Shown here in pieces: positions 6,679 through 29,613 of a stretch of 64,000 nt of DNA (its first letter is position 1; each line of letters begins with the position of its first letter). The DNA is taken from IMG/VR virus record IMGVR_UViG_3300044840_000020, positions 5,929 through 69,928 of that record; one strand, given 5' to 3'. The notes beneath the pieces were generated by a model. It did no database searches. It was not told the origin of the DNA and saw only the letters and a list, made by a program, of their open reading frames with translations. A program made the position numbers and the translations under genes. The DNA is from a virus (taxonomy: Duplodnaviria > Caudoviricetes).

Positions 6679-6702
6679 GTTAGACTCCTGAGGAGGGACC
6701 GC

Positions 6703-9557: not shown

Positions 9558-9565
9558 GTCCGTTC

Positions 9566-9588: not shown

Positions 9589-9612
9589 GCTCCAGCAGAG
9601 GAGGCGATTACT

Positions 9613-10368: not shown

Positions 10369-10504
10369 GGTAATGGGTTTACCGGGAGAAGGTCGTCGGG
10401 TTCGCGTGACGAAGGTTGATGATCCGGTACGTGTTCCAGAACCCGTTGAGGAGCCGGTTCGGGAGTGCCGTATCCCCGGTGCCCCCGGCGATTCTACGTC
10501 CGCG

Positions 10505-10807
10505 ATGTCCCTTACGACCGAGACGCCGACGTTCATCACGGCGCGCGAGGCGGGGCAGCTCCTGCGCGTCGCGCCGCGGACGATCCGGCGGTGGTCCGAG
10601 CAGGGCCGATTGACGTCGTACCGCCTCGGACCGCGGAGCATGAGGTTCGACGCCGAGGAGATCACGACACTGATCGCGGACTCGGCGGAGGCGCCGACCC
10701 CCAGTCGGGACGTTACTCGAAGGGAATACGTCCCGACGTACCCGTCTTCGAACACGCCCAGACCGTTCCGTTCGAGTCAAGTACACGTTGGAAGCGGGAG
10801 GAAATGA
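10505..10807 (+). CDS. Excisionase/MerR-like HTH DNA-binding protein
   Basis: ITAREAGQLLRVAPRTIRRWSEQGRL..YRLGPRSMRF. Confidence 0.75.
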   Translation: MSLTTETPTFITAREAGQLLRVAPRTIRRWSEQGRLTSYRLGPRSMRFDAEEITTLIADSAEAPTPSRDVTRREYVPTYPSSNTPRPFRSSQVHVGSGRK

Positions 10808-11208
10808 GCGATACGGGGCGTCCTAGGTTCTCGGTCGTTAAGGGTGAGCGGAAGGACGTTCCGATTCGTTCGGAACCAGGAGCGCTTAGAAGGCGTTGCG
10901 TACACGATCACGTTGTTGTTGACTCGGAGGCGCGAACGATTACGTGCGATGATTGTAAGGCGATCGTGGATCCGTACGAGGCTATAGAGCGGATCGCTTA
11001 TTGGGTCCACGAGTATCGTTTTTGGCGGGATCGGTATCGCGATGAGGCGCGTGTTGCGGAGCGCACGGTGAAGGAGTTGAAGCGTGTTGAGGTGAACGTG
11101 AAGGCGCGGGTTCGGACGGCGGCGAGGAAGATTTCGGCGTGTAAGTGTGAGAGTCAGGCTAGTTACGGTCGGTTCTGTCGGGATTGCGGCGGTCGGATCG
11201 AGCGTTAG
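10804..11208 (+). CDS. Hypothetical Cys-rich protein
   Basis: C.H...ITCDDC and C.C...FCRDCG motifs; overlaps previous stop. Confidence 0.6.
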   Translation: MSDTGRPRFSVVKGERKDVPIRSEPGALRRRCVHDHVVVDSEARTITCDDCKAIVDPYEAIERIAYWVHEYRFWRDRYRDEARVAERTVKELKRVEVNVKARVRTAARKISACKCESQASYGRFCRDCGGRIER

Positions 11209-11210
11209 GG

Positions 11211-11429
11211 ATGCCGACGATGGCGGAGTTGCTCGCGCCGATTCGCGTGAGAATCGAGCGGCGTGAGCGTCGTCTTCGGACGGTCGAGGCTCAGCGCGCG
11301 TATCTAAAGGCGTTCGACGCGGCCTTGGAGCGGCGCGATGGGGACTTCGGTCTTTGGCTTGATGAACTAGCGAAGGATCTAAGGCTGAGTGGTGGCGAGG
11401 ATCATTCGGGTCCTGCTCGTAAGCGCTAG
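11211..11429 (+). CDS. Hypothetical protein
   Basis: ATG 2 nt after previous stop; coiled-coil-like. Confidence 0.5.
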   Translation: MPTMAELLAPIRVRIERRERRLRTVEAQRAYLKAFDAALERRDGDFGLWLDELAKDLRLSGGEDHSGPARKR

Positions 11430-11467
11430 CGAGGCCCGAGCGATGCTCGGCCGAAAGGAGTAAACGT

Positions 11468-12154
11468 ATGGCTACCGAAGCGAAGAAGGCGACTCGTCGG
11501 AAGGCGAAGATCCGTCCCGCAGTCTATGTGACATTAGGTATGTTCGACACGCGAACCCCGTTGTATCGCGTCGCCCGGGAGGGAGTTCCGATCAGCGAGT
11601 TTCGGCCGCTGACGCTGGGCGACTACTGTCCGTCTGGTGGGACGCCGCTTCGTGACGCGACGGCCCGTATGATCGGTTATCTCGACAGTCTCCGCGCGAA
11701 TGATCGCGTCACGATCGGCCTGTTGCTAGATGAGTCGGGTTCGATGGGCGGGAATGAACAGTCCGTGATCGAGGGTGTCAACCAGTTCGTAGATGGGATG
11801 CGAGCCGCGGTCGATCCTGAGGCGGCGGGAAAGGTCTTGGCGGTCGTCGTCACGGACGGGTATGAGAACTCGTCCAGCGAGGTTGATCAGGCGACGCTCG
11901 CGAAGATGGTCGCGGAGCGGGAGGCTGATGGTTGGACGTTCATTTTCCTTGGGGCGAACATCGATGCGTGGGCTCAGGGTCAGGCGATGGGGTTCTCGGT
12001 GACGGGACAGTCCGTGAACTACGTCTCGACGCCGGTCTGGGTCTATCCGATCATCCCGGTTCTGCCGTATCCGTGCTCTCAGCCTGTACGTCCGATTCTA
12101 AGTACGGTCGGAACAGCGATCTCCCAGGCGCGTGAGGCGATCAGTTCGCGGTAA
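11468..12154 (+). CDS. vWA-domain protein with internally swapped segment order
   Basis: MIDAS LLLDESGSM, GGTPLRDA and VVTDGYENSS present, but TPL block precedes DxSxS block. Confidence 0.75.
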   Translation: MATEAKKATRRKAKIRPAVYVTLGMFDTRTPLYRVAREGVPISEFRPLTLGDYCPSGGTPLRDATARMIGYLDSLRANDRVTIGLLLDESGSMGGNEQSVIEGVNQFVDGMRAAVDPEAAGKVLAVVVTDGYENSSSEVDQATLAKMVAEREADGWTFIFLGANIDAWAQGQAMGFSVTGQSVNYVSTPVWVYPIIPVLPYPCSQPVRPILSTVGTAISQAREAISSR

Positions 12155-12184
12155 ACTACCCGGGATGGCGTCCCAGCCCCGTAC

Positions 12185-12916
12185 ATGATCTTCAGCGTCG
12201 TTCAGGTCGCGGGCGTCCAGCAACGTAAGGTCACGTGCGCGGTTGTTCCCCGCTCGGACTGCCCGAAGGTCAAGCGTCACGCCAGCGGATGGGTCGAGAT
12301 CGTTCACCCCGTCCGCTCCGTCACCTGCGAGTACGTCGAGCGGGACGGGGATGGGGACCCGACCGGGAAGATCCTTCAACGCCGGCTTCCGTGGGTGATC
12401 ACGGTCACGAGGATCGAACCGAAGGTCTGGGTGGATGAGATTAACGAGAAGACCGCCCGCGAGTGTGGGTACGGATCACCCGCCGCGCTACGAGCGGAGT
12501 GGGGCCGGCGACATCGTCATCAGGATCTCGCGTCGTTAGTTCGGTTCGAACTGGGGGATACGCGGGACAGGTCGCTATACATGACCTCATCGGATTTCTA
12601 TCGTTGGGATATCGGGGACGGTCACGGTGGGACGGGCGATTATACGTCCAGCCCTACCCGATCCCTGGACGGCGCGCCAGTCCTGACCGGCGAGGAGTAC
12701 GAGACGCTCGGGGTAGCAGCACGGCAACGCGATCAGCGTCGTCGAGCTGACGCTGCGAAACGGATCGGGACCGAGACGCTCGCTCAACGCGTCGCCCGCC
12801 TGGAGGACGTCAAGAACGGGGCGTTAGCCGACGACGTACGACAAGAACTACGTATCATCGAGCAGCGAACCTTACGAGCAGAACGTAAGGTTCTCGCGGA
12901 TAGTTCTGGCGAATAA
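12185..12916 (+). CDS. Hypothetical protein, possible ASCH/PUA-like domain
   Basis: ITVTRIE...VDEINEKTARECGY.S.AAL..EW resembles the ASCH C-terminal pattern. Confidence 0.45.
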   Translation: MIFSVVQVAGVQQRKVTCAVVPRSDCPKVKRHASGWVEIVHPVRSVTCEYVERDGDGDPTGKILQRRLPWVITVTRIEPKVWVDEINEKTARECGYGSPAALRAEWGRRHRHQDLASLVRFELGDTRDRSLYMTSSDFYRWDIGDGHGGTGDYTSSPTRSLDGAPVLTGEEYETLGVAARQRDQRRRADAAKRIGTETLAQRVARLEDVKNGALADDVRQELRIIEQRTLRAERKVLADSSGE

Positions 12917-13066
12917 ATCCGCGACGCGACGCGCGAGGATATTTTCGCGCTTCCGAACCCGCCGCGTTCTACGCTACTATCCGCCTTATCTCGTCGTAGT
13001 TGCCTTTGGGGCGACTGGTCTAGGCGGAGGCCCAGGACTTGGGGTCCCCGTACGGAGGTTCCCGAA

Positions 13067-13249
13067 TTGACTCTAAGCCAGCGGATCGATCGGCTGGAGG
13101 CGTTTGCGAGTACAGGCCGGTTAGCGGGACGTGACCTAGAGGTCATCCAGACCCAGGTCGCTCGCGCGGAAGCGAAGCTTCTAACCGTCGCTCAGACGTG
13201 CTCTTGGACGCGATCATCGCTCGGGCTCGTTAAGATCATCGATCCGTAG
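13067..13249 (+). CDS. Hypothetical protein
   Basis: 60 aa helical ORF, TTG start after GGAGG. Confidence 0.45.
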   Translation: MTLSQRIDRLEAFASTGRLAGRDLEVIQTQVARAEAKLLTVAQTCSWTRSSLGLVKIIDP

Positions 13250-13256
13250 GCTGAAC

Positions 13257-13556
13257 GTGAGCGGACCGAACGTCCTGACCCAAATAGGACTGGGATCCTC
13301 GGACTGGGCGGGACGTAACCGCCCATCCGCAGGCGAACACTCTGGGACCTCCACGCTCCTGATGCGAGATGGGACCTCGTTCTCGGTCGCTCACGGCGGA
13401 ACGGAGGTACGCAGGAAACTAGACGTACATGCGATCTCGCCTCTTGCCCCAGGATCAACCGTCTGGGTAGCGTTCGACCAAGCGGGGCCGATCGCCTCGA
13501 CCGTAGTCCTGAACGCGGGGAACGTAGCGACGATCAACGGACGCTCCTACCCGTAG
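13257..13556 (+). CDS. Hypothetical protein
   Basis: 99 aa ORF in operon arrangement. Confidence 0.5.
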   Translation: MSGPNVLTQIGLGSSDWAGRNRPSAGEHSGTSTLLMRDGTSFSVAHGGTEVRRKLDVHAISPLAPGSTVWVAFDQAGPIASTVVLNAGNVATINGRSYP

Positions 13557-13559
13557 GCC

Positions 13560-13800
13560 AGGCGGGGCGGGACCTACCCAACCCATCCTCTTACCCGTAG
13601 GCCCCCGAGACACTCCCTAAGCCCTCCTACGCCTCACGACCTACCTAGGGCCTACCCGAACCGCTCCAACCCGCTCGAACAGCCACACAACCCGCGACAC
13701 CCAGCCCAGACAGCCACCAGACAAACCGGCGCCCAGGGTGAAACCCTCACGCCATCCAACGACCGCCTTGCAGTCGTTGTTTTCTCTCTCCGTGGTTAGA
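13560..13800. other. Non-coding C/A-rich tract ending at abrupt switch to G/T-rich sequence; candidate packaging/terminus or late-control region
   Basis: Local reversal of strand bias directly upstream of HNH-terminase genes. Confidence 0.35.
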
Positions 13801-13810
13801 ATCGGTTGGG

Positions 13811-14110
13811 ATGGCTTCTACGGTTCAGCGGGGTTACGGGGTGGCTCATAGGCGGGAGCGGGATCGGGTTGCTCGTTTGGTTGAGTCGGGTGGCGCGTTT
13901 TGTGCGCGTTGTGGGCGTCCGATTGATCCGGGTAGTCGTTGGGATCTTGGTCATGATGATTTTGATCGTTCGGTTTGGACTGGGCCGGAGCATGAGCGGT
14001 GTAATCGGCGAGCGGGTGGCCGGCGTGGGGGGCTTGTTGCGGCGGCGCGGCGTCGGGGTTCTTCGTTGGGTGATCGGGAGGTTGAGGGGTGGTCGAGGGA
14101 GTGGATTTAG
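13811..14110 (+). CDS. Packaging-associated HNH endonuclease
   Basis: QRGYG..H..R, CARCGRPI, WDLGHDD, PEHERCNR; immediately before terminase. Confidence 0.8.
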   Translation: MASTVQRGYGVAHRRERDRVARLVESGGAFCARCGRPIDPGSRWDLGHDDFDRSVWTGPEHERCNRRAGGRRGGLVAAARRRGSSLGDREVEGWSREWI

Positions 14111-14511
14111 GGTGGGAGGAGTTTGATCGTTGGGTTGATGGTCTTCCTGTTCGGGTTGCTCGTGCGGAGTTGAAGGCGGAGGCGCGTCGTTGGGCGGAGG
14201 ATTCCGTTTGTGCCATACCGGTTGAGTTGGCGGTTTCGGTTGAGGCTGGGGTTCGGGGGGATCTTCGGGAGATGGAGGTTCGTTTGCCGGGGGTTGCTTC
14301 TTCGGGTTTGGCGATGTCAGCGCTTCGGGTTGCGCGGGCGATGGATGAGCGGGGGTTGTCTGCGACGTCGACCGCGTCGTGTGCTCGGTCGTTGTTGGAC
14401 ACGATGGAGCGGTTGAGTGATCGGCTCCCAGCGGATGGGTCTAGGAGGTCTCGACTTGACGAGCTTGGCGCTCGACGTAACGCCCGACGTTCTGGGGCAT
14501 CAGTTACCTAG
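14089..14511 (+). CDS. terS: Terminase small subunit (putative)
   Basis: Position; helical; C-terminal SRLDELGARRNAR typical of actinophage TerS. Confidence 0.65.
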   Translation: MVEGVDLGWEEFDRWVDGLPVRVARAELKAEARRWAEDSVCAIPVELAVSVEAGVRGDLREMEVRLPGVASSGLAMSALRVARAMDERGLSATSTASCARSLLDTMERLSDRLPADGSRRSRLDELGARRNARRSGASVT

Positions 14512-15997
14512 GATTTGTCATGTTCCGGCGTCTGTTTCGTCGGCGGGGGCGGAGGCGGTTGAGTTGGCGGCGCTTGCGGGTTTGGAGCTTGATCCGTGGG
14601 AGGAGTTTGTGTTGACGTCGTCGTTGGGGGAGCGTAAGGACGGGAAGTGGGCGGCGTTTCAGGTTGGGTTGTGTGTGCCGCGGCAGAATGGTAAGTCGCT
14701 TGTGCTTGCGGCTCGGGAGCTGGCGGGCTTGTTCTTGCTGGGTGAGCGCGAGATCATGCATACGGCTCATCTGTTCAAGACGTCGTTGAACCAGTTCAAG
14801 TATTTGTTGTATTTGATTGAGTCGACCCCGGAGTTTGATCGGAAGGTCGCGAAGGTTTCTCGTTCTCATGGGGAGGAGGGGATCACGCTTCGGAATGGTC
14901 AGGCGATCGGGTTCGCTACTAGGACTGCGGGTGGGGGGCGTGGTTTGACGGGCGATTTGGTTGTGCTTGATGAGGCGTTTGAGATTAGCGAGGCGACGGC
15001 GGAGGCGTTGTTTCCGACGATGGCGGCGCGGTCCGTGAAGGGTAGTCCTCAGGTTTGGTTTGCGGGGTCGGCGGTTGACGAGGAGATTCATCAGCATGGC
15101 GCGGTGTTTTCGCGGGTTCGTCATCGCGGGATGACGCAGCGTCCGGATCGGTTGATGTATTGCGAGTGGTCGATTGACGCGGATGAGTTTGAGCTTCACC
15201 CTGAGATGATTGATGATCCGCGGGTATGGGCGGTCGCGAATCCTGGTCAGGGGATCAGGATTTCGGAGGAGTTCATCGTGGAGGAGCGCGAGGCGTTGAC
15301 CGAGCGCGGGTTCGCTCGGGAGCGATTGGGGATCGGTCATTGGTTGACCCCGACGAAGGGTGACGCGGTGATCTCGGCGGAGGGCTGGGCGGCGTGCGTG
15401 GACGAGTCGGCGGTTCCGGGTGATCCAGTCGTGTTCGCGTTTGATGTTTCCCCGGATCGTTCGCGGGCCGCGATCGGGGTTGCGGGTCGGGACGAGAGTG
15501 GTCTGATCGTGGTTGAGGTAATCAGGCGGGGTCGTGGGACGGGGTGGATCGCCGCGGATCTCGATGCGTTACTCGCGAAGCATCGTCGGTCGGTCGTTGT
15601 TTGTGATGCGATCGGTCCTGCGGGGGCGGTTGTCGGTCAGTTGGAGCATTTGCAGCGGTCGAAGCGGTTCGTTCTGATGACGGGCGCGGATTACGCGGCT
15701 AGCTGTGGCGCGTTCTATGACGCGGTTGAGAATCGGACGATGCGTCATCGTGGTACGGCGGCGTTGTCGGTCGCGGTCGCTGGCGCTAAGAAGCGGGCGC
15801 TCGGCGAGAAGTGGGCGTGGGGTCGGATCAAGTCGGAGACGGATGTAACGCCGTTAGTGGCGACTACGCTTGCCCTGGGGTACCTTCAGTCGGTTCGTCG
15901 AGGGGTTGCTCAGGTGATCAACCCGATGGACGTGATTCGGGTGGATCGCGGCGGGGAGCCCTACGATTTCTCGGCGCTCCCGGAGTGGGTTCGGTGA
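14417..15997 (+). CDS. terL: Terminase large subunit (true start probably ~14465)
   Basis: VPRQNGKS Walker A, LVVLDEA Walker B, ANPG, FARERLG, AFDVSPDR, DVTPLVA nuclease motifs. Confidence 0.92.
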   Translation: MIGSQRMGLGGLDLTSLALDVTPDVLGHQLPRICHVPASVSSAGAEAVELAALAGLELDPWEEFVLTSSLGERKDGKWAAFQVGLCVPRQNGKSLVLAARELAGLFLLGEREIMHTAHLFKTSLNQFKYLLYLIESTPEFDRKVAKVSRSHGEEGITLRNGQAIGFATRTAGGGRGLTGDLVVLDEAFEISEATAEALFPTMAARSVKGSPQVWFAGSAVDEEIHQHGAVFSRVRHRGMTQRPDRLMYCEWSIDADEFELHPEMIDDPRVWAVANPGQGIRISEEFIVEEREALTERGFARERLGIGHWLTPTKGDAVISAEGWAACVDESAVPGDPVVFAFDVSPDRSRAAIGVAGRDESGLIVVEVIRRGRGTGWIAADLDALLAKHRRSVVVCDAIGPAGAVVGQLEHLQRSKRFVLMTGADYAASCGAFYDAVENRTMRHRGTAALSVAVAGAKKRALGEKWAWGRIKSETDVTPLVATTLALGYLQSVRRGVAQVINPMDVIRVDRGGEPYDFSALPEWVR

Positions 15998-16302: not shown

Positions 16303-16671
16303 GTGAAGGGAGGGGCGATGACCCCTAGTAAGGATTCTGAGGCTGTTTCCGACTTGGAGACGCTCGATACGCCTGAATCTACGTCCGAGACTGTTGGAGG
16401 GTCGGAGGTGGTCGCGGAGACGGTCGTAGAGCCTGTCCTGGGGAGTGTTCGGGATAAGGAGAGCGACGTTGTCCCCGTTGGCGCTCCGATCCTGGAGACG
16501 CCCGAGTCCCCGCTCGCTCCACCCCGTTATGTTCCGGCTCACGCGCCGGTCACGTTCGAGACGCCAGAGAGTCCCGCTCCACAGCCATACCGTCCTGATG
16601 GGACGATCGAACCAGGGGGCCTACGACTACAGCGCTTCGTGTATTCGCTGTCGCCGCGAGATGCGAGTTAA
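16303..16671 (+). CDS. Acidic Pro-rich hypothetical protein
   Basis: Repeated ETPESP motif; RBS GGAGG before ATG 16318. Confidence 0.5.
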   Translation: MKGGAMTPSKDSEAVSDLETLDTPESTSETVGGSEVVAETVVEPVLGSVRDKESDVVPVGAPILETPESPLAPPRYVPAHAPVTFETPESPAPQPYRPDGTIEPGGLRLQRFVYSLSPRDAS

Positions 16672-16699
16672 TGGGCTCCCCGATCATCATCGCGGCTGT

Positions 16700-17347
16700 A
16701 TGACTAGACCCCGTATTGGACTGGAACTACAACAGTTACATGAGAAAGGAGCGAGTCTTCGCTCGCTCGCCGTTACATACTCTCTTGGCCGTAAGGTCGT
16801 CCGTAATCTAATTCTCCAAGCTGGAGGAACTATTCAGCCGTCGGGATGGGACGATGCCGCACGACGTAGCGGCTTTGCCGCTCGCGCCGTTAACTTTGTA
16901 ACGGGTGACTGCTCAATCCCCGGTTGCGATCAGGCTGCTATAGGTAAGCATGGGTGGTGCGACCGCCACTACCGTCGCTGGCTACATCATGGAGATCCGA
17001 CATGGACCGCAGTTCGTCCCGAACTCCCTAGTAGTCGATACGTCTCGCGCAAATTTCCTGGACATCCCCTCGCGAACCCTCGCACGGGTCGCGCGTACGT
17101 TCATCGCGTCGTTCTGTTCGACTGCTGCGGGGACGGTCGAGTTCCATGCTTTTGGTGTGCGCGACCCCTTCGGTGGAAGATCGATCGGCGATCCCCTGAT
17201 GCCGTAGTAGTCGATCACCTGGATCACGATCGCCATAACAATGATCCGACCAATCTTGTCCCAGCCTGTAACTCTTGTAATGGCGCGCGTAATCGTCGCC
17301 GTAAGCAACCTCCGCTTGTCTCTATCTACTCAGCGGGAGGTACCTGA
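16700..17347 (+). CDS. Free-standing HNH (homing-type) endonuclease with N-terminal HTH and Cys/His finger
   Basis: CSIPGC...CDRHYRRW, YVHRVV, CFWC, VVDHLDHDRHNNDPTNLVPACNSCN; atypical codon usage. Confidence 0.8.
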   Translation: MTRPRIGLELQQLHEKGASLRSLAVTYSLGRKVVRNLILQAGGTIQPSGWDDAARRSGFAARAVNFVTGDCSIPGCDQAAIGKHGWCDRHYRRWLHHGDPTWTAVRPELPSSRYVSRKFPGHPLANPRTGRAYVHRVVLFDCCGDGRVPCFWCARPLRWKIDRRSPDAVVVDHLDHDRHNNDPTNLVPACNSCNGARNRRRKQPPLVSIYSAGGT

Positions 17348-17800: not shown

Positions 17801-19171
17801 GTGTCGCTTGTTCGTAGGGCAGTCTCGGGTATCTCGCATGAGGTGAGGGCCGCCGATGGAAGACAGCCGTGGGGTGATAGCACACCCATTCCGAACTCGC
17901 TTGCGGGGGGAGCGCGGGTTGGCGGCATCCCCGTCACTCAGTCCTCGGTCACGCGGATTTCGACGGTGTACGCATGCATTGGATTGCTCGCCGACACGAT
18001 CTCGTCGCTCCCGACTCAGCTTCGCGATGGGCCTCAGGTCGCGACGTCGAAGGTTCTGAAGCCGTCCCCGCTGCTAACGCGGCCGTACGCGGAGATCAGT
18101 CGCCGCGATTGGTGGGTTCAGTTCATCTGGTCGCTCGCGTTACGCGGGAACTTCTTCGGGTTGATCATCGAGCGTGATCGTCTCGGCGATCCGGTTCAGA
18201 TTAAGCCGATCAGCCCGGATCGCGTGCAGCTTCGCCGTCTTCCGGGGTCGGGAATATTGGAGTACAGGTTCAACGGTTTGGTCGTCCCGCTCGATGATGT
18301 TGTTCACGTCAGGTATCAGACTCATCCGGGGTCGCTGATTGGCTTGAACCCGATCGAGATCTGTGCTCTGTCGTTCGGGTTGCAGATCGCTCAGGAGTCG
18401 TACGCGGAGACGTTCTTCTCGAATAGCGCGAATCCTCAGGGTGTGATTCAGGTCCCTGGTGTCCTGGATGTTGTTGAGACGAAGAAGATGATGCGTGGTT
18501 GGATCGCGGCGCATCAGGGGTTGAATCAGGCGAACTTGCCGGCGATCTTGACGGAGGGCGCGGAGTTCAAGGCGATCACGATCAACCCGTCCGATTCTCA
18601 GTTGTTGGAGGCTTTGGGGGCGTCGCGGTCGTTGATCGCGGGAACGATCTTCCGCATTCCGCTTCACATGGTGGGGATCGTCGATCGTTCTTCGAGTTGG
18701 GGACGAGGTCTCGAAGTCATGGAAAGAGGGTTCTTCTCGAACACGTTGATCGGTTATCTCGTTCCCGCAGTGGAGATGATGACGGGGTATCACCCTACTG
18801 GGCAGTTCATGCACTTTGATACGAAGGAGCGGTTGCGGGGGACGGCGTTGGAGCGGGCTCAGACGGGTTCGCTCGCGATGCTTGCGGGTGCGTGGTGTGC
18901 GGATGATTTCCGGGCGACGTTTGATCAGCCTCCGTTGCCTGATGGGAAGGGTCAATACACATATGCACCGATCAACACCGAGTTGCTGCTCCAAGCATTG
19001 CAACTCTTGAAGGATTCGGAGACGACTCCAGAACCGCCGGAACCGGAGGGTGATCAGAGTATCCCGACGCCTTCGGGGGGCGCTCCGGCGGCTGGTCGGT
19101 CCTCGAATGGTCACGGGCGAATGTCGCGTGATCAAGCCGCGGCGCTCGTACGTTCCGTCATCGGCGGCTAG
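17801..19171 (+). CDS. Portal protein (HK97 family)
   Basis: STVYACIGLLADTISSLP, LALRGNFF, GLNPI, FFSNSANPQGVI, ILTEGAEF, IFRIPLHMVG. Confidence 0.92.
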   Translation: MSLVRRAVSGISHEVRAADGRQPWGDSTPIPNSLAGGARVGGIPVTQSSVTRISTVYACIGLLADTISSLPTQLRDGPQVATSKVLKPSPLLTRPYAEISRRDWWVQFIWSLALRGNFFGLIIERDRLGDPVQIKPISPDRVQLRRLPGSGILEYRFNGLVVPLDDVVHVRYQTHPGSLIGLNPIEICALSFGLQIAQESYAETFFSNSANPQGVIQVPGVLDVVETKKMMRGWIAAHQGLNQANLPAILTEGAEFKAITINPSDSQLLEALGASRSLIAGTIFRIPLHMVGIVDRSSSWGRGLEVMERGFFSNTLIGYLVPAVEMMTGYHPTGQFMHFDTKERLRGTALERAQTGSLAMLAGAWCADDFRATFDQPPLPDGKGQYTYAPINTELLLQALQLLKDSETTPEPPEPEGDQSIPTPSGGAPAAGRSSNGHGRMSRDQAAALVRSVIGG

Positions 19172-19214: not shown

Positions 19215-20663
19215 ATGAAGAAGGAAGATAGGGCCTACTCCGCCAAGGAGTTGGAGGTGCTGGTGAAGGGTTCTTCGACGCCGACTGTGGTTGATTGGAA
19301 GCGGGCGGTTAGGGCGGTGACCCGCGGTGACGCGGGTTACGATGCCATCAGGAAGGATCTCGTCGGTCGTGCTCAGAAACTGGGCGTGAATGAACTTGTC
19401 CCGTCGAACTGGAACGCGGACGGGAGCTTGGAGTCGAAGGCGGGTATCTGGACGGATCAGGAGTCGCGGGAGACCCACGGGGATCTCGCGGTCGCTCTCT
19501 CGGACGCGCTTGAGGGGCTTGTTGACGACATGGACGGCGTGTATTACGGCTGGCTTCAGGACTTTGATGATGAGAACATGTACTTCCAGGCGGGTGGTTT
19601 GTTGTACTCGGCGTCGTACGTGGTAGCGGATGGTGGTCCCGTGACGCTGGGAGATCCGACGCGGGTTCGTCCCGTTACGTCGTACGTTCCCGCAGAGGAC
19701 GACTTGGAGCGGTCGGAGGCGAAGCCTGAGCGGCGTCTCGCGTCGCGAACGTTGGAGTGGCGGAAGGAGCGCGCGCCGAAGCGTTTGGATCGTGAGACGC
19801 GGGAGATCGCTCGTCCGTTCGAACTACGTGACGAGGATGATGGTGATACGTGCGTTCTTCGGTCGTACGCCAGTCTGTTTGATGAGCCGTACACGGTTGG
19901 GTCTGGGTCTTATCGGTATCAGGAGACTGTGCTGCCGGGGGCGTTCAAGCGGACGTTGAACAACGGTCCGGACGTGGTTTTTCGCGCGGAGCATGGTGGG
20001 CCGCCTCTTGCGCGTACGTCGTCGGGGACGTTGACGGTTGGTGAGGATGAGACGGGCCTTTGGTATGAGGCGAGTCTTTCTCGCGCGGATCCGGATGTTC
20101 AGCGGTTGATTCCGAAGATTGAGCGCGGGGATTATCGCGAGTCAAGTTTTGCGTTTCGTTGCGTCGAGGACGCGTGGAACGATGACTACTCGAAACGGTC
20201 TCTGAAGGCGTGTGATCTTGATAGGGGGGATGTTAGTATCGTCACGTTTGGGGCGTCTCGCGCGACGGGGAAGCACATGCTTTTGAGGTCGGAGGAGGAG
20301 GCGATCCTGTCGCTTCGTTCGGGTGGGGTTGAGGTTCTGTTGGCGGCTCTTGTTGAGTGGCGTGACTTCACGCTTACCCCGTTGGAGGATCGGGCGGGGA
20401 AGGCGATCTCGGCGTCGAACCTGGCGACGTTGAAGCACGTTCTGTCGCTTGCGGCGTCCGCAGATGAGGCTTTGGATGAGATTCAGCCGACGCTCGCGGA
20501 CTTGATGGGGGTTCCGAACCCGGACGCGGATGATGACGCGACGGAGGAGAACGCGGATAAGACCGAACCGGTTGAGGAACGGGTCGAACTACCCAAGGTT
20601 CCTGCGCTACCCGCGTCGTCTCTTCGTGATCTACGGCGCGAACTTCGTCGGAGGGCCGCCTGA
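19215..20663 (+). CDS. HK97-family prohead protease with N-terminal extension (DUF6582-like)
   Basis: YASLFD..Y, ETVLPGAF, EHGGPPLART.SGTL...ED.TGL, SFAFR, DVSIVT; N-terminal AIRKDL..RA.KLG...LVP.NW..DGSL. Confidence 0.85.
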   Translation: MKKEDRAYSAKELEVLVKGSSTPTVVDWKRAVRAVTRGDAGYDAIRKDLVGRAQKLGVNELVPSNWNADGSLESKAGIWTDQESRETHGDLAVALSDALEGLVDDMDGVYYGWLQDFDDENMYFQAGGLLYSASYVVADGGPVTLGDPTRVRPVTSYVPAEDDLERSEAKPERRLASRTLEWRKERAPKRLDRETREIARPFELRDEDDGDTCVLRSYASLFDEPYTVGSGSYRYQETVLPGAFKRTLNNGPDVVFRAEHGGPPLARTSSGTLTVGEDETGLWYEASLSRADPDVQRLIPKIERGDYRESSFAFRCVEDAWNDDYSKRSLKACDLDRGDVSIVTFGASRATGKHMLLRSEEEAILSLRSGGVEVLLAALVEWRDFTLTPLEDRAGKAISASNLATLKHVLSLAASADEALDEIQPTLADLMGVPNPDADDDATEENADKTEPVEERVELPKVPALPASSLRDLRRELRRRAA

Positions 20664-21859
20664 TGGGTGTGACCGCTCCCGAGGTTACGGAGAGGGCGGA
20701 CGCGAAGGATTTCGAGGCGTCCCCTCGGATCGAAGGTATTCGGGAACCGTTGACGTACGAGGCGCGCGTAGAGCGAACTCGTCGCGGGGGTATTCGTATT
20801 CGGTCGGTCGGGGAGCCTCGCTCGTACTTCCAGGACGTTGTTGCTCTTGAACGCAGTGGGGATCGCGCGGCGCGTGAGCGTTTGGAGCGTCACGGCCGGG
20901 AGGTCGAGGGCGAGATGCGGGCTCGTCGCGTCGCGGAGTCTCCCGAGGTACGTTACGAGTTAGAGACGCGCGCTCCGACAGCAAGTTTCGCTGCCCCCCC
21001 GCTGTGGTTGATTGATTATTTCGCGACCGCGGATCGTGCGGAGCGGGTGCTCGCGGATCTCGCGCCGAACTTCTTTCTTCCCCAGGGCGTGTTCAGCGTG
21101 AACTTGCCGGGTGAGACTCAGGCGTCGAGCGTCGGCGAGCAGCAGTTGGGTACTTCGGTTCCGTCGACGGACGCGACGGATCAGGCGATTTCGTCCGCTG
21201 TCGCGACTCTTGCGGGCCAGTGGGATGTTCCGCTTCAGATGTTGGAGCAGAGTCCCCCGTCCGCCGCGTTCGATTGGGTCGCGTTCACTCAGCTTCAGGC
21301 GGACTACGACGCGCAGTTGGAGTATCAGTTGATTAACGGGAACTCGCCTGGGATCGTCGGACTTCTGAACAATCCGCTTGTTCCTGCGGCGAACGTGATC
21401 ACGACGACCCAGACGACGGCGACGGGCCAGTTCCCAGCACTCGGTCAGGTTCTCGCTGCGGTTGGTAACACGCGGCTAATGCCTGCGGAGGCGTGGCTCA
21501 TTCGCACAAATAGGTTCGCGTGGTACGGATCCAGTGAAGACCTAGCGTCGAGACCGTTGATGATTACGGACCGTGACGGGTCCGGCATGTTCTCCATGCT
21601 TGGCGTTAACGCGAACCACGACAACGCGGTCCCGATCACGCTCGGCGCGGGCCGGAACCAGGACGTTGTGATCGCGTGTCGTCCCTCGGACTGGCTCGTC
21701 TTGGAGTCCGACTTAACGACGGACGTCATGGAGGACGTCTTGAGCGGATCGCTCAATGTACGCCTCCAGTTGCGCGGATACATCGCGGCGCTGCTTCGTC
21801 AGCCGAACAGCGTGGCATACCTGACTGGTTCTGGAATGGTGCGCCCAAGCGGCTTTTGA
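20663..21859 (+). CDS. HK97-fold capsid protein paralog A (no long N-terminal scaffold domain)
   Basis: PPLWLID, TLAGQWDVPLQMLEQSP, VLSGSLNVRLQ; aligns end to end with 21988..23724. Confidence 0.8.
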   Translation: MGVTAPEVTERADAKDFEASPRIEGIREPLTYEARVERTRRGGIRIRSVGEPRSYFQDVVALERSGDRAARERLERHGREVEGEMRARRVAESPEVRYELETRAPTASFAAPPLWLIDYFATADRAERVLADLAPNFFLPQGVFSVNLPGETQASSVGEQQLGTSVPSTDATDQAISSAVATLAGQWDVPLQMLEQSPPSAAFDWVAFTQLQADYDAQLEYQLINGNSPGIVGLLNNPLVPAANVITTTQTTATGQFPALGQVLAAVGNTRLMPAEAWLIRTNRFAWYGSSEDLASRPLMITDRDGSGMFSMLGVNANHDNAVPITLGAGRNQDVVIACRPSDWLVLESDLTTDVMEDVLSGSLNVRLQLRGYIAALLRQPNSVAYLTGSGMVRPSGF

Positions 21860-21865
21860 CCTTTC

Positions 21866-21884
21866 CCGCGTGTTTTTCACGCGG
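21866..21884 (+). terminator. Hairpin between the two capsid genes
   Basis: CCGCGTG-TTTTT-CACGCGG perfect inverted repeat. Confidence 0.4.
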
Positions 21885-21987
21885 TCGTTCTTATCCGTAG
21901 TACTACGTACGCCCCCCGTCGAGTCCCGCCTCTTTACGCGGCCTGGCACCTACCGGGAGCCCCATAAAACAACCAGAAGGAGGGGCT

Positions 21988-23724
21988 ATGTCCCTGGCTA
22001 GTAAGACGCCGCGTGCGGCGCGTCAGACCCTGGAAGAGAAGTACGCGGAGTTCTTCCGTACCCATCCCCCGATCTGGGGGGCTGACGGAGCGACGGCGAC
22101 CGAGTCGCTGCTCGAAAAGCTGCTCGCTCGACGGGCCGCGCTCGCGGCGGAGATCGAACCGTTGATCGATAAGCGTGAGGAGGACCGTGAGACGTGGGTC
22201 ACGCGGTCGTCGTCTGACGAGTTCCAGAAGCTGGATGAGGAGGCGCGTAAGGCGGAGATTGCTGAGTACGCCGCTTCGGAGGAACGGTTCGGCGAGGACT
22301 CCGCGATCAAGATGAGCGAGATTCGCGCGTTGGATCAGCGGATCGCGGAGCAGGAGATCAAGGAGCAGTCGAGGTCGCTCGCGGAGAACGCGTCGCGGTC
22401 GGAGTCTCGGTCTGGTCTGTCGGGTGTTACTCGTCAGAAGGAGCCGATGACGTACCGGCAGGACAATCAGAAGGAGACCTCTTACTGGCTTGATCTTGCG
22501 GCGGCTCAGGTTCCTCAGGTTCGGCAGAACGCGAGCGGACGGACGGACGGTTTCCAGGAGCGCCTCGATAGGCATGCGAAGGAGATGGAGGACACCCTGT
22601 CGGGGCGTCGTGACTCGCGCGAGGGTCGCGCTCAGCGGATGATCGACGACGCGGAGATGGCGGCTACGGGCCGGTTCGGTTCGGCTCGTGGTTTCGAGGG
22701 GTCTCCGTTTGAGTCTCGCGCCCCGTCCCGGATCCCCGGGCAGGGTGGGTATGCGGTACCACCGCTGTGGCTGATCGATGATTACATCCCGGCGCTCCGT
22801 CCGGGACGCGTCGCGGCCGGTCTCTGTCGGAACCTTCCGCTTCCCGCGGGTACCGATTCGATCAACGTTCCGAAGCTTCTGACCCCAACGCTGACGGGGA
22901 TTCAGACTGCGGATAATGCACCGGTCGCGTCTAGGGATTTCTCGGACACGTTCGTTCAGGCGAACGTGAAGACGGTCGCCGGTCAGGAGGACGTCCCGAT
23001 CCAGTTGATCGAGCAGTCCCCAGGCCAGATCCTCGATCAGGTAATCACGACGGACCTGATCGCGGACCTGAACCAGAAGGTTGACCTTCAGGTTCTGACG
23101 GGCAACGGGGCTGGGGCTCCGCTCTCGGGTGGTCAGGTCATGGGCCTGTACCCCGCATCAAACTGGGGCGCGACGACCCTGACGTGGACGGCAGCGACGC
23201 CGACCGCAGCGGGGTTCTTCCAAGTACTGGGAGCGATGCTCAGCAAGACGGCGTACACGCGGTTCTCGCTGACCGACTTCCAGTACATGTTCCATCCTCG
23301 CCGCGCAGGTTGGTGGTTGACCGCGACGGACTCAGTCGGTCGTCCACTCGTGAGCACGCCTGGGTTTAACCCGTTCAACATTCAGGCGCTAGAGGAAGCG
23401 GTAATCCCGTACGAGGGTCGGATCGCGGACCTTCCGTTCGGCCCAGCGGCGTACATGAACGCGAACATTCCGATCACGGATAGTTCCGGAACTCCTGGCG
23501 GCGGGACGGCCGACATCGGTCTCGGCGCGATCTGGGACGACATCTGGTTCTTCGAGGGAGACCTCCGAACCCGAGTCCTCTCCGAAGTCCTCTCAGGAAC
23601 ACTGGAACTCCGATTCCAAGTGTATGAGTACATTTCGCTGCTCTGCCGATACGGTGCTTCGATCGTCATCGCGACGGGTTCTGGGTTCGCCGCTCCGACA
23701 ACGGTCGACGGTACGGCGTACTAA
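21988..23724 (+). CDS. Major capsid protein (HK97 fold, with coiled-coil delta/scaffold domain), paralog B
   Basis: Charged helical N-terminus; GGYAVPPLWLIDDYI, TVAGQEDVPIQLIEQSP, QVLTGNG, VLSGTLELRFQ; strong AGAAGGAGG RBS. Confidence 0.88.
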   Translation: MSLASKTPRAARQTLEEKYAEFFRTHPPIWGADGATATESLLEKLLARRAALAAEIEPLIDKREEDRETWVTRSSSDEFQKLDEEARKAEIAEYAASEERFGEDSAIKMSEIRALDQRIAEQEIKEQSRSLAENASRSESRSGLSGVTRQKEPMTYRQDNQKETSYWLDLAAAQVPQVRQNASGRTDGFQERLDRHAKEMEDTLSGRRDSREGRAQRMIDDAEMAATGRFGSARGFEGSPFESRAPSRIPGQGGYAVPPLWLIDDYIPALRPGRVAAGLCRNLPLPAGTDSINVPKLLTPTLTGIQTADNAPVASRDFSDTFVQANVKTVAGQEDVPIQLIEQSPGQILDQVITTDLIADLNQKVDLQVLTGNGAGAPLSGGQVMGLYPASNWGATTLTWTAATPTAAGFFQVLGAMLSKTAYTRFSLTDFQYMFHPRRAGWWLTATDSVGRPLVSTPGFNPFNIQALEEAVIPYEGRIADLPFGPAAYMNANIPITDSSGTPGGGTADIGLGAIWDDIWFFEGDLRTRVLSEVLSGTLELRFQVYEYISLLCRYGASIVIATGSGFAAPTTVDGTAY

Positions 23725-25592: not shown

Positions 25593-25954
25593 TGGCTGGT
25601 GGCTCGCTCACGATCACGGGGTTGTCCGCGAGTGAACCGTCTGGATATCGAACGTTTGGGCCGATCACAATTCAGGGGACGGTCGTGATCGGGGAGACCC
25701 TGGAGGTTCCACTCGTGTCGGGGGATAATACGTTCGCGATCCCGGATCAGGCGACGGCGTGTTGGATTATTCCGCCGACGCAGGGGACGGTTGCGTTGAC
25801 GATTCGTACGTCCGCTAACTCGGGGGACGCGGGTCTTCCGATCTCGGCGCAGATGCCTTTCGGTCCGTTTTGTTTTCCAGCGACGGTTCCGGCGTCGTTG
25901 ATCGTGAACGCGTCTGCGGTCCAGGCGAGTCCCTTGTCCATCGTGTTTATTTAG
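25592..25954 (+). CDS. Virion structural protein
   Basis: TGATG coupling; beta-rich. Confidence 0.55.
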   Translation: MAGGSLTITGLSASEPSGYRTFGPITIQGTVVIGETLEVPLVSGDNTFAIPDQATACWIIPPTQGTVALTIRTSANSGDAGLPISAQMPFGPFCFPATVPASLIVNASAVQASPLSIVFI

Positions 25955-25968
25955 AGGAGGCGGTTCTC

Positions 25969-26580
25969 ATCGGGTTCACCACATACGGGAACGATAAGCT
26001 CCTTCAGGCGTTTGGTCAGGCTGCGGCGCTTGGCGGTCCCTCAACTCATTACGTTGGGTTGATGACGGGTTCGGTTTGGCAGGCGTCTCATGTGTACTCG
26101 TCGGGTGCGTATGTCATTCCGACGACGTTCGCGTCGATCTCGACTCAGGCGGGGAAGATCTTTAAGTGCACGGTGGCGGGTACGTCTGCGGGTTCTCAGC
26201 CGACGTGGCCTACTACGGCGGGTGGGACCGTCACGGATGGGGGTGTGACGTGGACGGAGATCACGAACTTGTTTGCTCAGGGGACGTTCACGGGGGCGGA
26301 GATTGTTGGTAATGGGTACGCGCGGGTGGCTGTTGTTGCGAACTCGACTAACTTTCCGAACGCGACTGTTGCTCAGCCGGCGGTCTTGTCGAACGGTGTT
26401 GCGATTACGTTTCCGTCTCCTACGGCGGATTGGGGGTTGGCGATCGGGTGGGTTGATGCGGATGCGTCTTCGGCGGGGAACGTTTGGGCGTGGGCTCCTA
26501 CGACGACTGCTTTGGATTGTGCGTCTGGGTCTACTCCGTCGTTCGCGATCAGCGCGTTGACCTTGTCGTTGTCCCCGTAG
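25969..26580 (+). CDS. Virion fibre/adaptor protein with carbohydrate-binding-like insertion; apparent ATC start
   Basis: GFTTYGNDKLL, NGYARVAV, ITFPSPTADWG pattern; insertion WQASHVYSSG...FKCTVAGTS...PTWPT; GAGGAGG 8 nt before ATC. Confidence 0.6.
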   Translation: MGFTTYGNDKLLQAFGQAAALGGPSTHYVGLMTGSVWQASHVYSSGAYVIPTTFASISTQAGKIFKCTVAGTSAGSQPTWPTTAGGTVTDGGVTWTEITNLFAQGTFTGAEIVGNGYARVAVVANSTNFPNATVAQPAVLSNGVAITFPSPTADWGLAIGWVDADASSAGNVWAWAPTTTALDCASGSTPSFAISALTLSLSP

Positions 26581-26585
26581 GGCTG

Positions 26586-28781
26586 ATGACGCTTCCGGAG
26601 AACATCGCGAACTCGGCTACGCCCGGGAGTGTTGTTGCGATCTCGTCGCTTGCGTCGGGGATTGTTACGACGCCTGCGTCGGGGACGGTTGAGACGTGGA
26701 CGTTTACGTCGTCGCCTCCTGCGACGCTTGGGATTGCTGGCCAGTTTCGGTTTGTTGTAGACGCGGAGGTTTTGCTTGATACGACTGGTGGGGCGGGTTC
26801 GACGCGGACGGTCGTTCGGGGCCAAGAGGGTTCGACGCCTGCGCTTCACGCGGCGGGTGCGAGTGTTCTTCATTATTTAACTGCGGGGGCGTTGAGGGCG
26901 GCGTTCGCGACGGTCGGGACGGGTGGGACAGTTGGCGGTTCGGGCGGTAGTCCTCTAGCGAGTTCGGTGGTAAGCGGGGCATCATCGGGAGGCGCGATCC
27001 CGTGGGCGGCCGGTGTCCAGCAGACCGCGAACGTGATCTACTCGAACGCCGGGTCGTTGTATCTGTGCAGCGTCACGCACATGTCGGCGGGGACGTTCGC
27101 GGCGGACGCAGCCAACTTCCAGGCGATGGGCGGCTTGGGCACGGCGGTAAACGGTGGCGCGTCCGGGCCGCCCGCGTGGTCCGCTTCGACCGCCTACGCG
27201 GTGAACCAGCTCGCGACCTACAACGGGATCACGTTCCTCTGCACCACGGCTCACACGTCCGGGACGACGTTCATCGCGACGAACTGGCTGCGGCTCGGGA
27301 CCTCGCCGCATCTCCCGTTCCTCGGGCTGCCGCTCCTGCCCGTGTCGGATCGTTTCGGCATGTGCGGGGCGTCTAGCAGCGACTCGACGGATACGGCGTG
27401 CGACTCGATCACCCGCTGGCCGTTGCGCCGCGACGCGACCACAGTGACGGTCATCGTCGCGAACTGGCCGAGTTACGGGGCCGCTACCCCCACGAGCCAG
27501 GTTACCTACACGGCTGCCGTGCAGGATTCCGCGGGCAACAAGATCCCCGTGTTCTTCAACGGGCTACGCGCCGTCACCGTCGACGGTGACGGCTTCGCGG
27601 TCGGAGTCGCAACAGGCGTTGACGGTCTCGTGACCAACGGCTTCATCTACGTGCGTCTCCATGCGACTGTGACGACGGTCGGGAATGTCCTTTATGAGAA
27701 CTATGCGACCGACGCTGGGCTCAACGAGGGTCGCGTCTTCAACTCGGGCAGCGACCTGACACTGTCGGGTACGATCACCGTGAACTCGGGGTTCTGTGTC
27801 GCGCCGCTGACCGTTCTCTCACCCGCCGTCGCGACCGACCTTCAGGTGCTCGGCGCGGTAGGCGACTCGATCGTCGCGGACACTCACGGCGATGTCTTCG
27901 GGTCAACCACGGCCATCGTGACGTTCTCGTTTGGCTGGCCGCGTCGCTTCGCGATCCGCGCCAACCGGCCGTTCGTGAATTGCGGCCTCTCGGGCGAAAC
28001 CGCGCAGGTGTTCGCGGCCGGACCTACAAGCAGCGGCATCTACCGGCGATTCGCGCTTCTCGCTGGCTGCTCGCAGATCGTCGCGAACCACGGCATCAAC
28101 GACCTCAACACTGGTCGGACCCTCGTCCAGTTGCAGGCGAATGTCCTCACGATCGCCGGCTTCTTCCCGAAGTCGAAGGTGTGGTGGGGAACCATCACTC
28201 CGTATGCCGATTCGACGGACGCGTACGCCACCCTCGCTAACCAGACCCATCATTTCACCGTCACGGTGGAGGGGTACCGCACCACGTTCAACGACTGGCT
28301 GCGCGCGGGCGCACCGATCGATCCGACGACGAAGGTCGCAGTCGCCGTTGGAACTGGTGGGGCGCTGCTCGCGGGCCAGGCAGGACATCCCCTCGCCGGA
28401 TACGTCGAGATTACTGACCAGGTGGAGACGGCGCGCAACAGCGGCTTCTGGGTGTCCAACGGCCGGTCGGTCACCGATGCCGCGATGGCCTCCACATCTT
28501 CCGGCATAGTCACGAGCGCAACCGCAGCGTTTAGCGCCGGGGACGTCGGCAAGCGCGCCTATGTCGCTGGAGCTGTCGTGACGAGCGCGAACGGGCCGCC
28601 CCCGACGATCCTCTCGGTGCAGTCAGCCACCCAGGCGACGCTTTCGGCCAACGCAACCGGAATTGTGTCCGGGGCGGCAATGGGCATCGGCGCGTACGCG
28701 TACACGCTCGACGGACTGCACCCCTACATCGAAGCGGTCGCCGCTATCGCCGCTGCAATCCCCACCGGCGCGCTGCTCTGA
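26586..28781 (+). CDS. Fibre/spike protein with CBM5/12-like repeats and SGNH/GDSL hydrolase domain
   Basis: PAWSASTAYAVNQLATYNG...LCTTAHTS; blocks GDSI, NCGLSG, GINDL, DGLHP. Confidence 0.75.
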   Translation: MTLPENIANSATPGSVVAISSLASGIVTTPASGTVETWTFTSSPPATLGIAGQFRFVVDAEVLLDTTGGAGSTRTVVRGQEGSTPALHAAGASVLHYLTAGALRAAFATVGTGGTVGGSGGSPLASSVVSGASSGGAIPWAAGVQQTANVIYSNAGSLYLCSVTHMSAGTFAADAANFQAMGGLGTAVNGGASGPPAWSASTAYAVNQLATYNGITFLCTTAHTSGTTFIATNWLRLGTSPHLPFLGLPLLPVSDRFGMCGASSSDSTDTACDSITRWPLRRDATTVTVIVANWPSYGAATPTSQVTYTAAVQDSAGNKIPVFFNGLRAVTVDGDGFAVGVATGVDGLVTNGFIYVRLHATVTTVGNVLYENYATDAGLNEGRVFNSGSDLTLSGTITVNSGFCVAPLTVLSPAVATDLQVLGAVGDSIVADTHGDVFGSTTAIVTFSFGWPRRFAIRANRPFVNCGLSGETAQVFAAGPTSSGIYRRFALLAGCSQIVANHGINDLNTGRTLVQLQANVLTIAGFFPKSKVWWGTITPYADSTDAYATLANQTHHFTVTVEGYRTTFNDWLRAGAPIDPTTKVAVAVGTGGALLAGQAGHPLAGYVEITDQVETARNSGFWVSNGRSVTDAAMASTSSGIVTSATAAFSAGDVGKRAYVAGAVVTSANGPPPTILSVQSATQATLSANATGIVSGAAMGIGAYAYTLDGLHPYIEAVAAIAAAIPTGALL

Positions 28782-28905: not shown

Positions 28906-29613
28906 ATGAGTACTGTTCAGCCTATACGGCTTTCTACGCAGTCGTCCCCGAAACTCGCGCTGGTTCCTAAGCCGCCGTGTCGTACTAATCGGGGGCGTAA
29001 GTTCCCGCCCGATCCCCTGACGACGGAGGAGATAGTTCGACTTCTTGGGGCGTGCATTCCGACGCGTTCGGGACCGTTCTGGGAACTTTCGGCCGCGCGT
29101 CTACGGGCGATTATCGTCTTACTGTGGCGTACTGGTTTGCGGATCTCCGAGGCGTTGGCGTTGGAGGATCGTGATCTTCATCGCGCTGATCGGATGATCG
29201 TAGTTAGGCGCGGGAAGGGCGGGAATCGTCGCCTGGTGATGATGGATGAGTGGGGTTGGAAGCAGTTTGATTCCTGGCTAGCGATTCGTCGTGATCTTCC
29301 GCTTGGCCCTGTGTTCTGCGTACTACAGGGTGACGCGGCGGGTCAGTCCTGGGCAGACTGTGATGTTCGTCGCCAGTTCCGTGATGCGGGGCGACGTGCG
29401 GGTCTTCGTAAGCGCGTTCATCCCCATGTGATGAGGCATACTCACGCGATTGATCTTCGTCGTGACGGCTTGGATCTCCTAACGATCTAGAAGCAGCTCG
29501 GGCACGCCCACATGGGAATCACTCAGATATACCTTGACTCGATTGTGGTTGAGGAGGCGCTCGCTCCGATCGGGGCGCGTAAGCCCCCGATGATGCAGGT
29601 CCCCGACGTGTAA
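28906..29613 (+). pseudogene. Tyrosine recombinase interrupted by in-frame TAG (29488-29490)
   Basis: LWRTGLRISEAL, RRGKGG, HPHVMRH; after TAG the frame continues KQLGH..MGITQIYL to TAA 29611-29613. Confidence 0.85.

Follow-up and report, generated by a model that had tools for sequence, protein, structure and literature searches.

In the virus record IMGVR_UViG_3300044840_000020 (IMG/VR; 69,928 bp, estimated completeness ~70%), we analyzed a stretch of 64,000 nucleotides, positions 5,929 to 69,928 of the record, that we refer to as the window; coordinates below are window positions unless another locus is named. The sequencing runs listed for this record are exclusively of soil-metagenome DNA. 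The head module encodes, in this order and all on the + strand, a portal protein, an S78-family prohead protease and two adjacent capsid proteins, here called A and B, which are the subject of this report. Genes for a tail sheath, a tape measure and a baseplate wedge lie downstream of the capsid pair; the source phage is therefore contractile-tailed, and the label of myovirus given to it in an earlier reading from the letters alone (the sequence-only reading) was apt. The genes of the head module that matter for the argument are as follows.

17801-19171, + strand: portal gene, 456 aa (PF04860, 7.1e-58; phrog_12, 3.4e-70)
19215-20663, + strand: prohead serine protease (S78) gene, 482 aa, extended at the N- and C-terminus (PF04586, 3.6e-24, residues 202-353; phrog_80, phrog_7053)
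20663-21859, + strand: gene A, 398 aa, HK97-fold capsid paralogue, proposed minor or vertex (penton) subunit (BLASTP against B, phrog_2263, AlphaFold2 model, Foldseek)
21988-23724, + strand: gene B, 578 aa, major capsid protein, proposed hexon subunit (PF05065, phrog_2263, tree position)

Homology and fold of A and B

A and B are HK97-family capsid paralogues. BLASTP aligned the two proteins over 385 columns with 31% identity (E 6e-39), far past chance, and both matched the profile phrog_2263, annotated as 'major head protein' (7.6e-25 for A and 2e-37 for B). A direct match to PF05065 was obtained for B alone (27.0 bits, cut-off 24.2), with A falling below the cut-off; the same family is present in nearly all database homologues of A. 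A joint profile of the A/B family matched HK97 gp5 at ~1e-9. All of the alignment blocks quoted in the sequence-only reading were located in both proteins: EPLTY at A 28-32 and EPMTY at B 152-156, SYF at A 54-56 and SYW at B 165-167, PPLWLID beginning at A 112 and B 258, the LEQSP block in both, VLSGSLNVRLQ in A and VLSGTLELRFQ in B, and TGSG at A 388-391 and B 563-566. When B by itself was compared with PDB sequences, the only matches were of coiled-coil type, and we judged them spurious.

To model A with AlphaFold2, an alignment of 110 rows was used, as a single-sequence model reached a predicted local distance difference test score (pLDDT) of only 34.8. The alignment-based model had a pLDDT of 85.5 and a predicted template modeling score (pTM) of 0.77. 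Its best Foldseek matches in the PDB were HK97-fold capsid proteins (D3, Ziko, Cain, HK97 and others; E 1e-14 to 1e-15, probability 1.00), among them capsid proteins of actinophages and that of HK97 itself; T4-type capsid proteins were absent among the best sequence or fold matches. As modeled, A carries the HK97 fold, with an N-arm, an E-loop, a spine helix, and peripheral and axial domains. The earlier description of the locus as two neighboring HK97-fold capsid paralogues is thus borne out, with both open reading frames (ORFs) at the positions listed above, and the concern raised with it, that A might lack the fold, is dispelled by the model and its Foldseek matches.

Opposite size changes in the two proteins

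The domain layout was assembled from the A model, the alignments and the known processing of related capsid proteins. In Mycobacterium phages Omega and LittleE, N-terminal sequencing of the capsid proteins established that an N-terminal delta domain is removed, and the mature LittleE protein begins with DLDRNNGTGGYAVP (PMC3706429). The resulting subdivision of A and B is listed here.

20663-20956, + strand: A prodomain, about residues 1-98, with a beta-hairpin carrying EPLTY, helices at 55-91 and a flexible linker (secondary structure and pLDDT of the model; boundary estimated from LittleE homology)
20957-21856, + strand: A mature body, about residues 99-398, with the N-arm (PPLW), E-loop, spine helix (203-225), and axial and peripheral domains (model)
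21533-21598, + strand: A residues 291-312, a loop shortened to 22 aa, with its motif lost, probably of the axial domain (single-gene relatives have 35-38 aa here and B has 38)
21988-22707, + strand: B scaffold-like N-terminal prodomain, about residues 1-240 (composition and length; boundary placed by the LittleE/Omega processing site)
22708-23721, + strand: B mature body, about residues 241-578, with enlarged axial-domain loops (alignment)
23686-23721, + strand: B C-terminal tail past TGSG, 12 aa (single-gene relatives have 5-8 aa and A has 7)

We compared segment lengths as medians, with 29 aligned relatives that have a single capsid gene as the reference set. Relative to these, the paralogues have diverged in opposite directions, A being trimmed and B enlarged. 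The segment before the PP(L)W motif of the N-arm is 151 residues in single-gene proteins, 111 in A-type and 241 in B-type proteins. The loop at A 291-312 spans 36 residues in the reference set (35-38, motif conserved), 22-24 in A-type proteins (variable, motif lost) and 39 in B-type proteins. Between the spine helix and the RPSD motif the corresponding values are 133, 125 and 150, so that the axial region of A-type proteins as a whole is only ~8 aa shorter than that of single-gene relatives, and 6, 7 and 12 residues (up to 21 in B-type proteins) follow TGSG. Going by how helices and strands succeed one another in the model, we assign the shortened loop of A tentatively to the axial domain, after its second helix.

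The first 150 residues of B are rich in Ala, Glu and Arg. The sequence-only reading had A lacking this scaffold region altogether, which is accurate for the first ~125-145 residues of B and overstated for the remainder: A retains a prodomain of ~100 aa whose motifs are common to A, B and the single-gene relatives. The block that aligns to the mature end of LittleE (E-x-R...GG..PPLW) is likewise retained, as ELETR...PPLW in A and FESR...GGYAVPPLW in B. In the A model it falls within a low-confidence linker (residues 92-113) that joins the ~90-aa structured prodomain to the N-arm. By this alignment, cleavage would occur near residue 99 of A and residue 241 of B. If A is cut in this way it is a substrate of the protease, and hence presumably a component of the procapsid as B is.

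Conservation, selection and origin of the pair

Scans of IMG/VR viral contigs with A or B as lone protein queries returned nothing. An alignment-based scan of the same database did find relatives, yielding 80 loci that were then searched with A, B, portal and protease. Genes of both types occur together in 20 further distinct viral contigs, most of them in the order protease-A-B. The deepest-branching pairs vary: L060 (2239-7769) has portal-A-protease-B, and in L028 (1357-3902) B is followed directly by A.

In a maximum-likelihood tree of 89 capsid proteins (unrooted, with Shimodaira-Hasegawa-like approximate likelihood ratio test (SH-aLRT) support), the A-type sequences form one clade (99%), and 16 B-type sequences form a clade nested among the single-gene phages (98-100%). 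Matching sub-groups recur in the two clades, and across 18 genomes the A-to-A and B-to-B pairwise distances are correlated with r 0.81, a value reached by none of 5000 Mantel permutations. Within each of the 18 genomes, A and B are 31-40% identical, which argues for an old split and against homogenization of the copies.

For the closest pairs, Nei-Gojobori ratios of nonsynonymous to synonymous substitution rates (dN/dS) were 0.18-0.38 for A and 0.13-0.48 for B; these are rough, with dS at ~0.55-2 or saturated. The dN of A was ~1.0-2.3 times that of B. Among 37 A-type proteins, 26 alignment columns are invariant and 43 nearly so, and A is intact in each contig that carries it. Judged by these substitution patterns, both genes are under purifying selection; the correlated distances and the old split indicate that the pair has long been inherited together. 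The alignment and dN/dS comparison across relatives that had been called for thus showed both genes constrained and diverging in step, and relaxed selection on A, named earlier among the findings that would speak against the interpretation, is ruled out by the dN/dS values and the invariant columns.

These data also bear on the idea that A is a redundant or decaying duplicate without a role in the virion. It could be argued from the failure of A to pass the Pfam cut-off by itself, from its weaker codon bias (below) and from its somewhat faster protein evolution relative to B. However, an A gene that is intact everywhere, with dN/dS of ~0.2-0.4 at saturated dS, with so many invariant and nearly invariant columns and with a confidently modeled fold makes such an explanation scarcely credible, and we rejected A as a pseudogene or relaxed duplicate on the invariant columns and dN/dS.

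On its sequence relationships, B corresponds to the lone capsid protein that related phages encode, because it groups with the single-gene proteins, scores higher against them and keeps their loop motifs. For example, the capsid gene of Nadezda matched B with 205 bits and A with 146, and the match to Superphikiman was also stronger for B. The sequence-only reading had described the genes as tandem paralogues. They are adjacent and homologous; duplication in place is not established, as A falls in an old clade of its own and could instead have been captured from another lineage.

Among cultured phages, tblastn with A or B retrieved only Mycobacterium phages, at 28-35% identity and with one matching place per record, and the tandem pair was not found in any of them. 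In these phages a single annotated capsid gene of 464-480 aa follows the portal and protease genes. The M. abscessus prophage prophiGD43A-5 also has a single capsid gene.

In some relatives the B-type gene is split. In L006 it lies in three pieces (8832-9584, 10620-10982 and 11751-12494), and a group I intron (RF00028, 53.9 bits) was detected at the first break (L006:9543-9801). The breaks in L006, L008 (9287-11289) and L018 (9043-11696) fall at B residues ~254-262, beside PPLW, a site that coincides with the spliced intron of Mycobacterium phage LittleE (PMC3706429). The intron model was not detected in the B-type genes of L008 or L018.

Gene coupling and expression signals

The following candidate expression signals flank the two genes.

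20651-20665, + strand: A Shine-Dalgarno sequence GGAGGG with a TGATG overlap of the protease stop and the A start at 20661-20665 (sequence; -10.0 kcal/mol)
21866-21884, + strand: hairpin of 7 bp (6 G-C pairs) followed by a T-rich stretch, just 3' of the A stop (not statistically distinctive)
21976-21985, + strand: B Shine-Dalgarno sequence GAAGGAGGGG (-13.1 kcal/mol, the strongest of the head module)

The start codon of A overlaps the stop codon of the protease gene, and the coupling of A to the protease that had been noted earlier is therefore as described. The protease is a low-copy protein. Shine-Dalgarno pairing was strongest for B (-13.1 kcal/mol), followed by the protease (-10.7), A (-10.0) and the portal (-9.5), which puts the A site on par with those of the portal and protease. 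The sequence-only reading had also proposed a stronger ribosome-binding site behind a hairpin for B. Both elements exist; the difference between the ribosome-binding sites is not conserved, and the hairpin is not distinctive. Nine terminator-like sites were found in the region against 8.5 +/- 3.0 expected, so there is no enrichment, and the fold of the A-B intergenic spacer is unremarkable (z -0.64). For these reasons we set aside the hairpin and ribosome-binding site as a sign of differential expression of A and B.

In 16 of the 18 genomes, B showed stronger codon bias than its A partner (Wilcoxon p 0.004, the genomes not being independent), a weak indication, with codon bias as a proxy for expression, that B is the more highly expressed. 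A promoter scan did not find a sigma-70-like site. A motif of ~39 nt (D1; core ...GTTATAGTGG...ACCCGAACG...) occurs six times, always away from the structural genes, and is a candidate phage promoter or operator; it is not near A or B and is absent from the A-B spacer.

3432-3470, 5429-5467, 6647-6685, 53217-53255, 55392-55430 and 56442-56480: copies of the 39-nt motif

The coupling of A to the protease gene raises the question of whether A could be an assembly factor, such as a nucleator or a scaffold-like decoy, that enters the procapsid and is lost by removal or degradation as the head matures. Its retained prodomain motifs, which presumably bind protease or scaffold, would suit such a function, as would protein evolution up to 2.3 times faster than that of B. 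A transient factor would have no need, however, for the entire HK97 body (E-loop, spine helix and peripheral domain) that is conserved and confidently modeled in A. We know of no precedent for a capsid paralogue in this role and regard it as very unlikely.

A-type genes alone in satellite-like elements

In several small records an A-type gene is the sole capsid homologue. L029, a provirus record of 17,991 bp, encodes an integrase, a helicase, a small terminase and an A-type protein (gene at 6959-8203) within positions 1-15200; neither a portal gene (PF04860) nor a second capsid gene was found in the sequenced 17,991 bp. L056 (427-10092) encodes an integrase, a primase, an A-type protein, a protease and a large terminase, and L031/L032 (L032 362-7630) a D5-type primase, a helix-turn-helix protein, an A-type protein and a protease. 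These contigs are fragments with CheckV completeness of 4-19%, and the absence of B and portal genes holds for the sequenced part only. In the tree, L029 and L031 are nested in the A clade of the tandem phages, and L056 is basal on a long branch.

By gene content, the layout of these elements resembles that of phage satellites such as phage-inducible chromosomal islands (PICI) or their capsid-forming counterparts (cf-PICI). Since A-type genes occur alone in small elements, the A-type protein would not be inherently restricted to pentons. One lead is that the solo A-type protein either builds a small shell by itself or that the element borrows the hexon protein of a helper.

It follows that A might be tied to capsid-size switching or to satellite biology, either building a smaller head or being exchanged with satellites and altering which genome is packaged. 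The solo genes adjoin integrase, primase or helicase, and small-terminase genes, and two of them nest within the A clade of the tandem phages, which speaks for this idea. On the other hand, in the window and the 20 other contigs A sits in an ordinary head operon and diverges together with B, which fits a constitutive structural role, and the small contigs are incomplete. We therefore consider a function of this kind in the window distinctly unlikely.

Proposed architecture of the head

The sequence-only reading had suggested a heteromeric capsid in which A is a dedicated penton protein or a minor subunit. This is the best-supported reading of the data, and a shell made of two proteins is very likely; the penton placement of A is the part that is reached by analogy. 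In the model that we favor, the head shell would be built from two HK97-fold proteins encoded by adjacent genes. B would be the main subunit, most likely forming the hexons, with its long scaffold-like prodomain driving procapsid assembly and then being cut off by the S78 protease. A would be a second, specialized subunit with a shorter prodomain, one trimmed axial loop and a retained processing-site motif, and would most likely form the eleven pentons, as T4 gp24 and Jabs MCPp do. Three points of this model are inferred: the presence of A in virions, its cleavage by the protease and its position at the vertices. We put the probability that B forms the hexons and A the pentons at roughly 50%.

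The main argument for these roles comes from the M. abscessus siphophage Jabs (genome record PQ001584), whose T=9 head is built from two capsid proteins (bioRxiv 10.64898/2026.07.24.740622). In Jabs, MCPh (ORF72, 594 aa) forms the hexons, with residues 1-266 absent from the map and a C-terminal extension of 17 residues, and MCPp (ORF73, 257 aa) forms the pentons, with a markedly smaller axial domain and no prodomain (bioRxiv 10.64898/2026.07.24.740622). Each difference that we measured between A and B has the same direction as in the Jabs pair. Weaker support for a penton role of A comes from the stronger codon bias of B and from the coupling of A to the gene of a low-copy protease.

Several observations weigh against this assignment. 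Unlike Jabs MCPp, A still has a ~100-aa prodomain, and the axial loop is not short in all tandem A-type proteins, measuring 31-38 aa in L012, L017 and L018. The difference in Shine-Dalgarno strength between A and B is modest and is not kept in orthologous loci. In the window itself the gap in codon bias is negligible, and B is not clearly above the portal gene. The small records in which an A-type gene stands alone (L029, L056 and L031/L032) count on the same side. Finally, cluster J mycobacteriophages, whose capsid proteins belong to the same family, build T=13 heads in which a single capsid protein fills both hexons and pentons (PMC3706429), so a second subunit is no geometric necessity.

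Some of these observations would be accommodated if both proteins were shell subunits divided along other lines, with A in a subset of hexons, in mixed A/B capsomers, or in capsomers around the portal vertex. The evidence of conservation and co-inheritance applies equally here, A keeps its prodomain and processing motif as a normal capsid protein does, and the solo A-type genes imply abilities beyond pentons. However, our literature search yielded no tailed phage with solved mixed hexons or hexons of a class-specific paralogue, and both solved cases with two capsid proteins divide into hexons and pentons. The trimmed axial loop of A and its weaker codon bias also fit a low-copy subunit at the five-fold positions. 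We consider such a division unlikely, and retain hexons of B with pentons of A as the preferred arrangement.

If A does set curvature at the vertices, its occurrence in satellite-like elements acquires a further, speculative meaning. Satellites such as L029 may be may have taken up the A-type gene as a vertex subunit that replaces the penton protein of the helper and forces the B-type hexon protein into a smaller, satellite-sized shell. We think this improbable; if true, it would redirect capsid size in a manner unlike that of P4 and Staphylococcus aureus pathogenicity islands (SaPI), which do so via external and internal scaffolds.

Neighboring genes

Upstream of the head module genes described above are two further genes, as listed here.

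14417-15997, + strand: large terminase gene (phrog_9)
16445-17347, + strand: free-standing HNH endonuclease gene between the large terminase and portal genes (phrog_9443 and others)

The portal gene is interrupted in L008 (3097-5320) and L027 (288-2687) by gaps of ~0.9-1.2 kb after residue ~299, and in L020 (4240-5434) and L021 the reading frame of the portal gene changes near residue 304. Such interruptions could be introns, inteins or frameshifts. After the capsid genes, the region 25870-28781 of the window contains an ORF with a weak match to a head-decoration profile (phrog_20658, 1.1e-09) and a gene whose 765-aa product contains an esterase domain of SGNH or lysophospholipase-like type (phrog_8480, 1.2e-30). 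Next, at 28906-29490, comes an integrase-like fragment of 194 aa. A megablast search of cultured phages with the head module gave zero matches, and a scan of genome contigs did not find prophage relatives that would point to a host.

Comparison with known systems

In nearly all HK97-type phages and in the herpesviruses, one conformation-switching protein serves both hexons and pentons. To our knowledge, dedicated vertex paralogues were long known from T4 only. A 2026 preprint described one from the icosahedral mycobacteriophage Jabs as 'unprecedented' (bioRxiv 10.64898/2026.07.24.740622). An arrangement of the kind proposed here is therefore known already from T4 and Jabs; what is new is the lineage, the layout and the link to satellite-like elements. 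An uncultured lineage of contractile-tailed soil phages, with head genes related to those of actinophages, has retained such a capsid pair over a very long period. Taken together, single-gene relatives, A, B and the solo A-type proteins provide a comparison set for the parts of the HK97 fold that decide between five-fold and six-fold assembly, and the solo genes invite the question whether vertex proteins are put to use by satellites.

Among cultured phages, A and B are most closely related (28-35% identity) to the capsid proteins of cluster J (Omega, LittleE and BAKA) and of the Marvinvirus and Typha-like phages. These phages share the portal-protease-capsid gene order with the window. In cluster J a delta domain is removed at a mapped site, as predicted here for A and B, and the intron in the LittleE capsid gene has the insertion site seen in the split B-type genes (PMC3706429). 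They differ in having one capsid gene per genome and non-contractile tails.

In T4, gp23 forms the hexons and its paralogue gp24, encoded beside it, forms the pentons (PMC13185644). B and A resemble this pair in that a main capsid protein is accompanied by an adjacent paralogue. The prohead protease processes both T4 proteins, and of their propeptides that of gp24 is the shorter. T4 also has a separate scaffold protein, gp22, and its gene 24 comes after gene 23, whereas here the scaffold function presumably resides in the prodomain of B and A precedes B. The two capsid lineages are unrelated in sequence, A and B belonging to the HK97/PF05065 family. The order B-A in L028 is that of both T4 and Jabs, and an origin of the present pair independent of the T4 and Jabs pairs is likely.

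Jabs offers a close parallel. In both systems adjacent genes for HK97-fold capsid proteins lie in a head module of actinophage type; the long protein carries a C-terminal extension and an N-terminal domain of ~250 aa that is absent from the map in Jabs (residues 1-266) and predicted to be removed in B (about 1-240, by homology); and in the short protein, MCPp or A, the axial domain is smaller and the prodomain is shortened or missing. The trimming and growth of domains is thus the same in kind, and the layout is different. Here the short gene is upstream of the long gene and is coupled to the protease gene, A keeps its ~100-aa prodomain and processing motif, and A and B are 31% identical, against 18% for the Jabs pair. 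The phage of the window has a contractile tail, and its capsid proteins have no cysteine network (one Cys in A and two in B). The roles of the two proteins were solved by cryo-electron microscopy in Jabs and are proposed from the genes here, where they point to the same division of labor, with the enlarged protein as the probable hexon subunit and the trimmed one as the proposed penton subunit.

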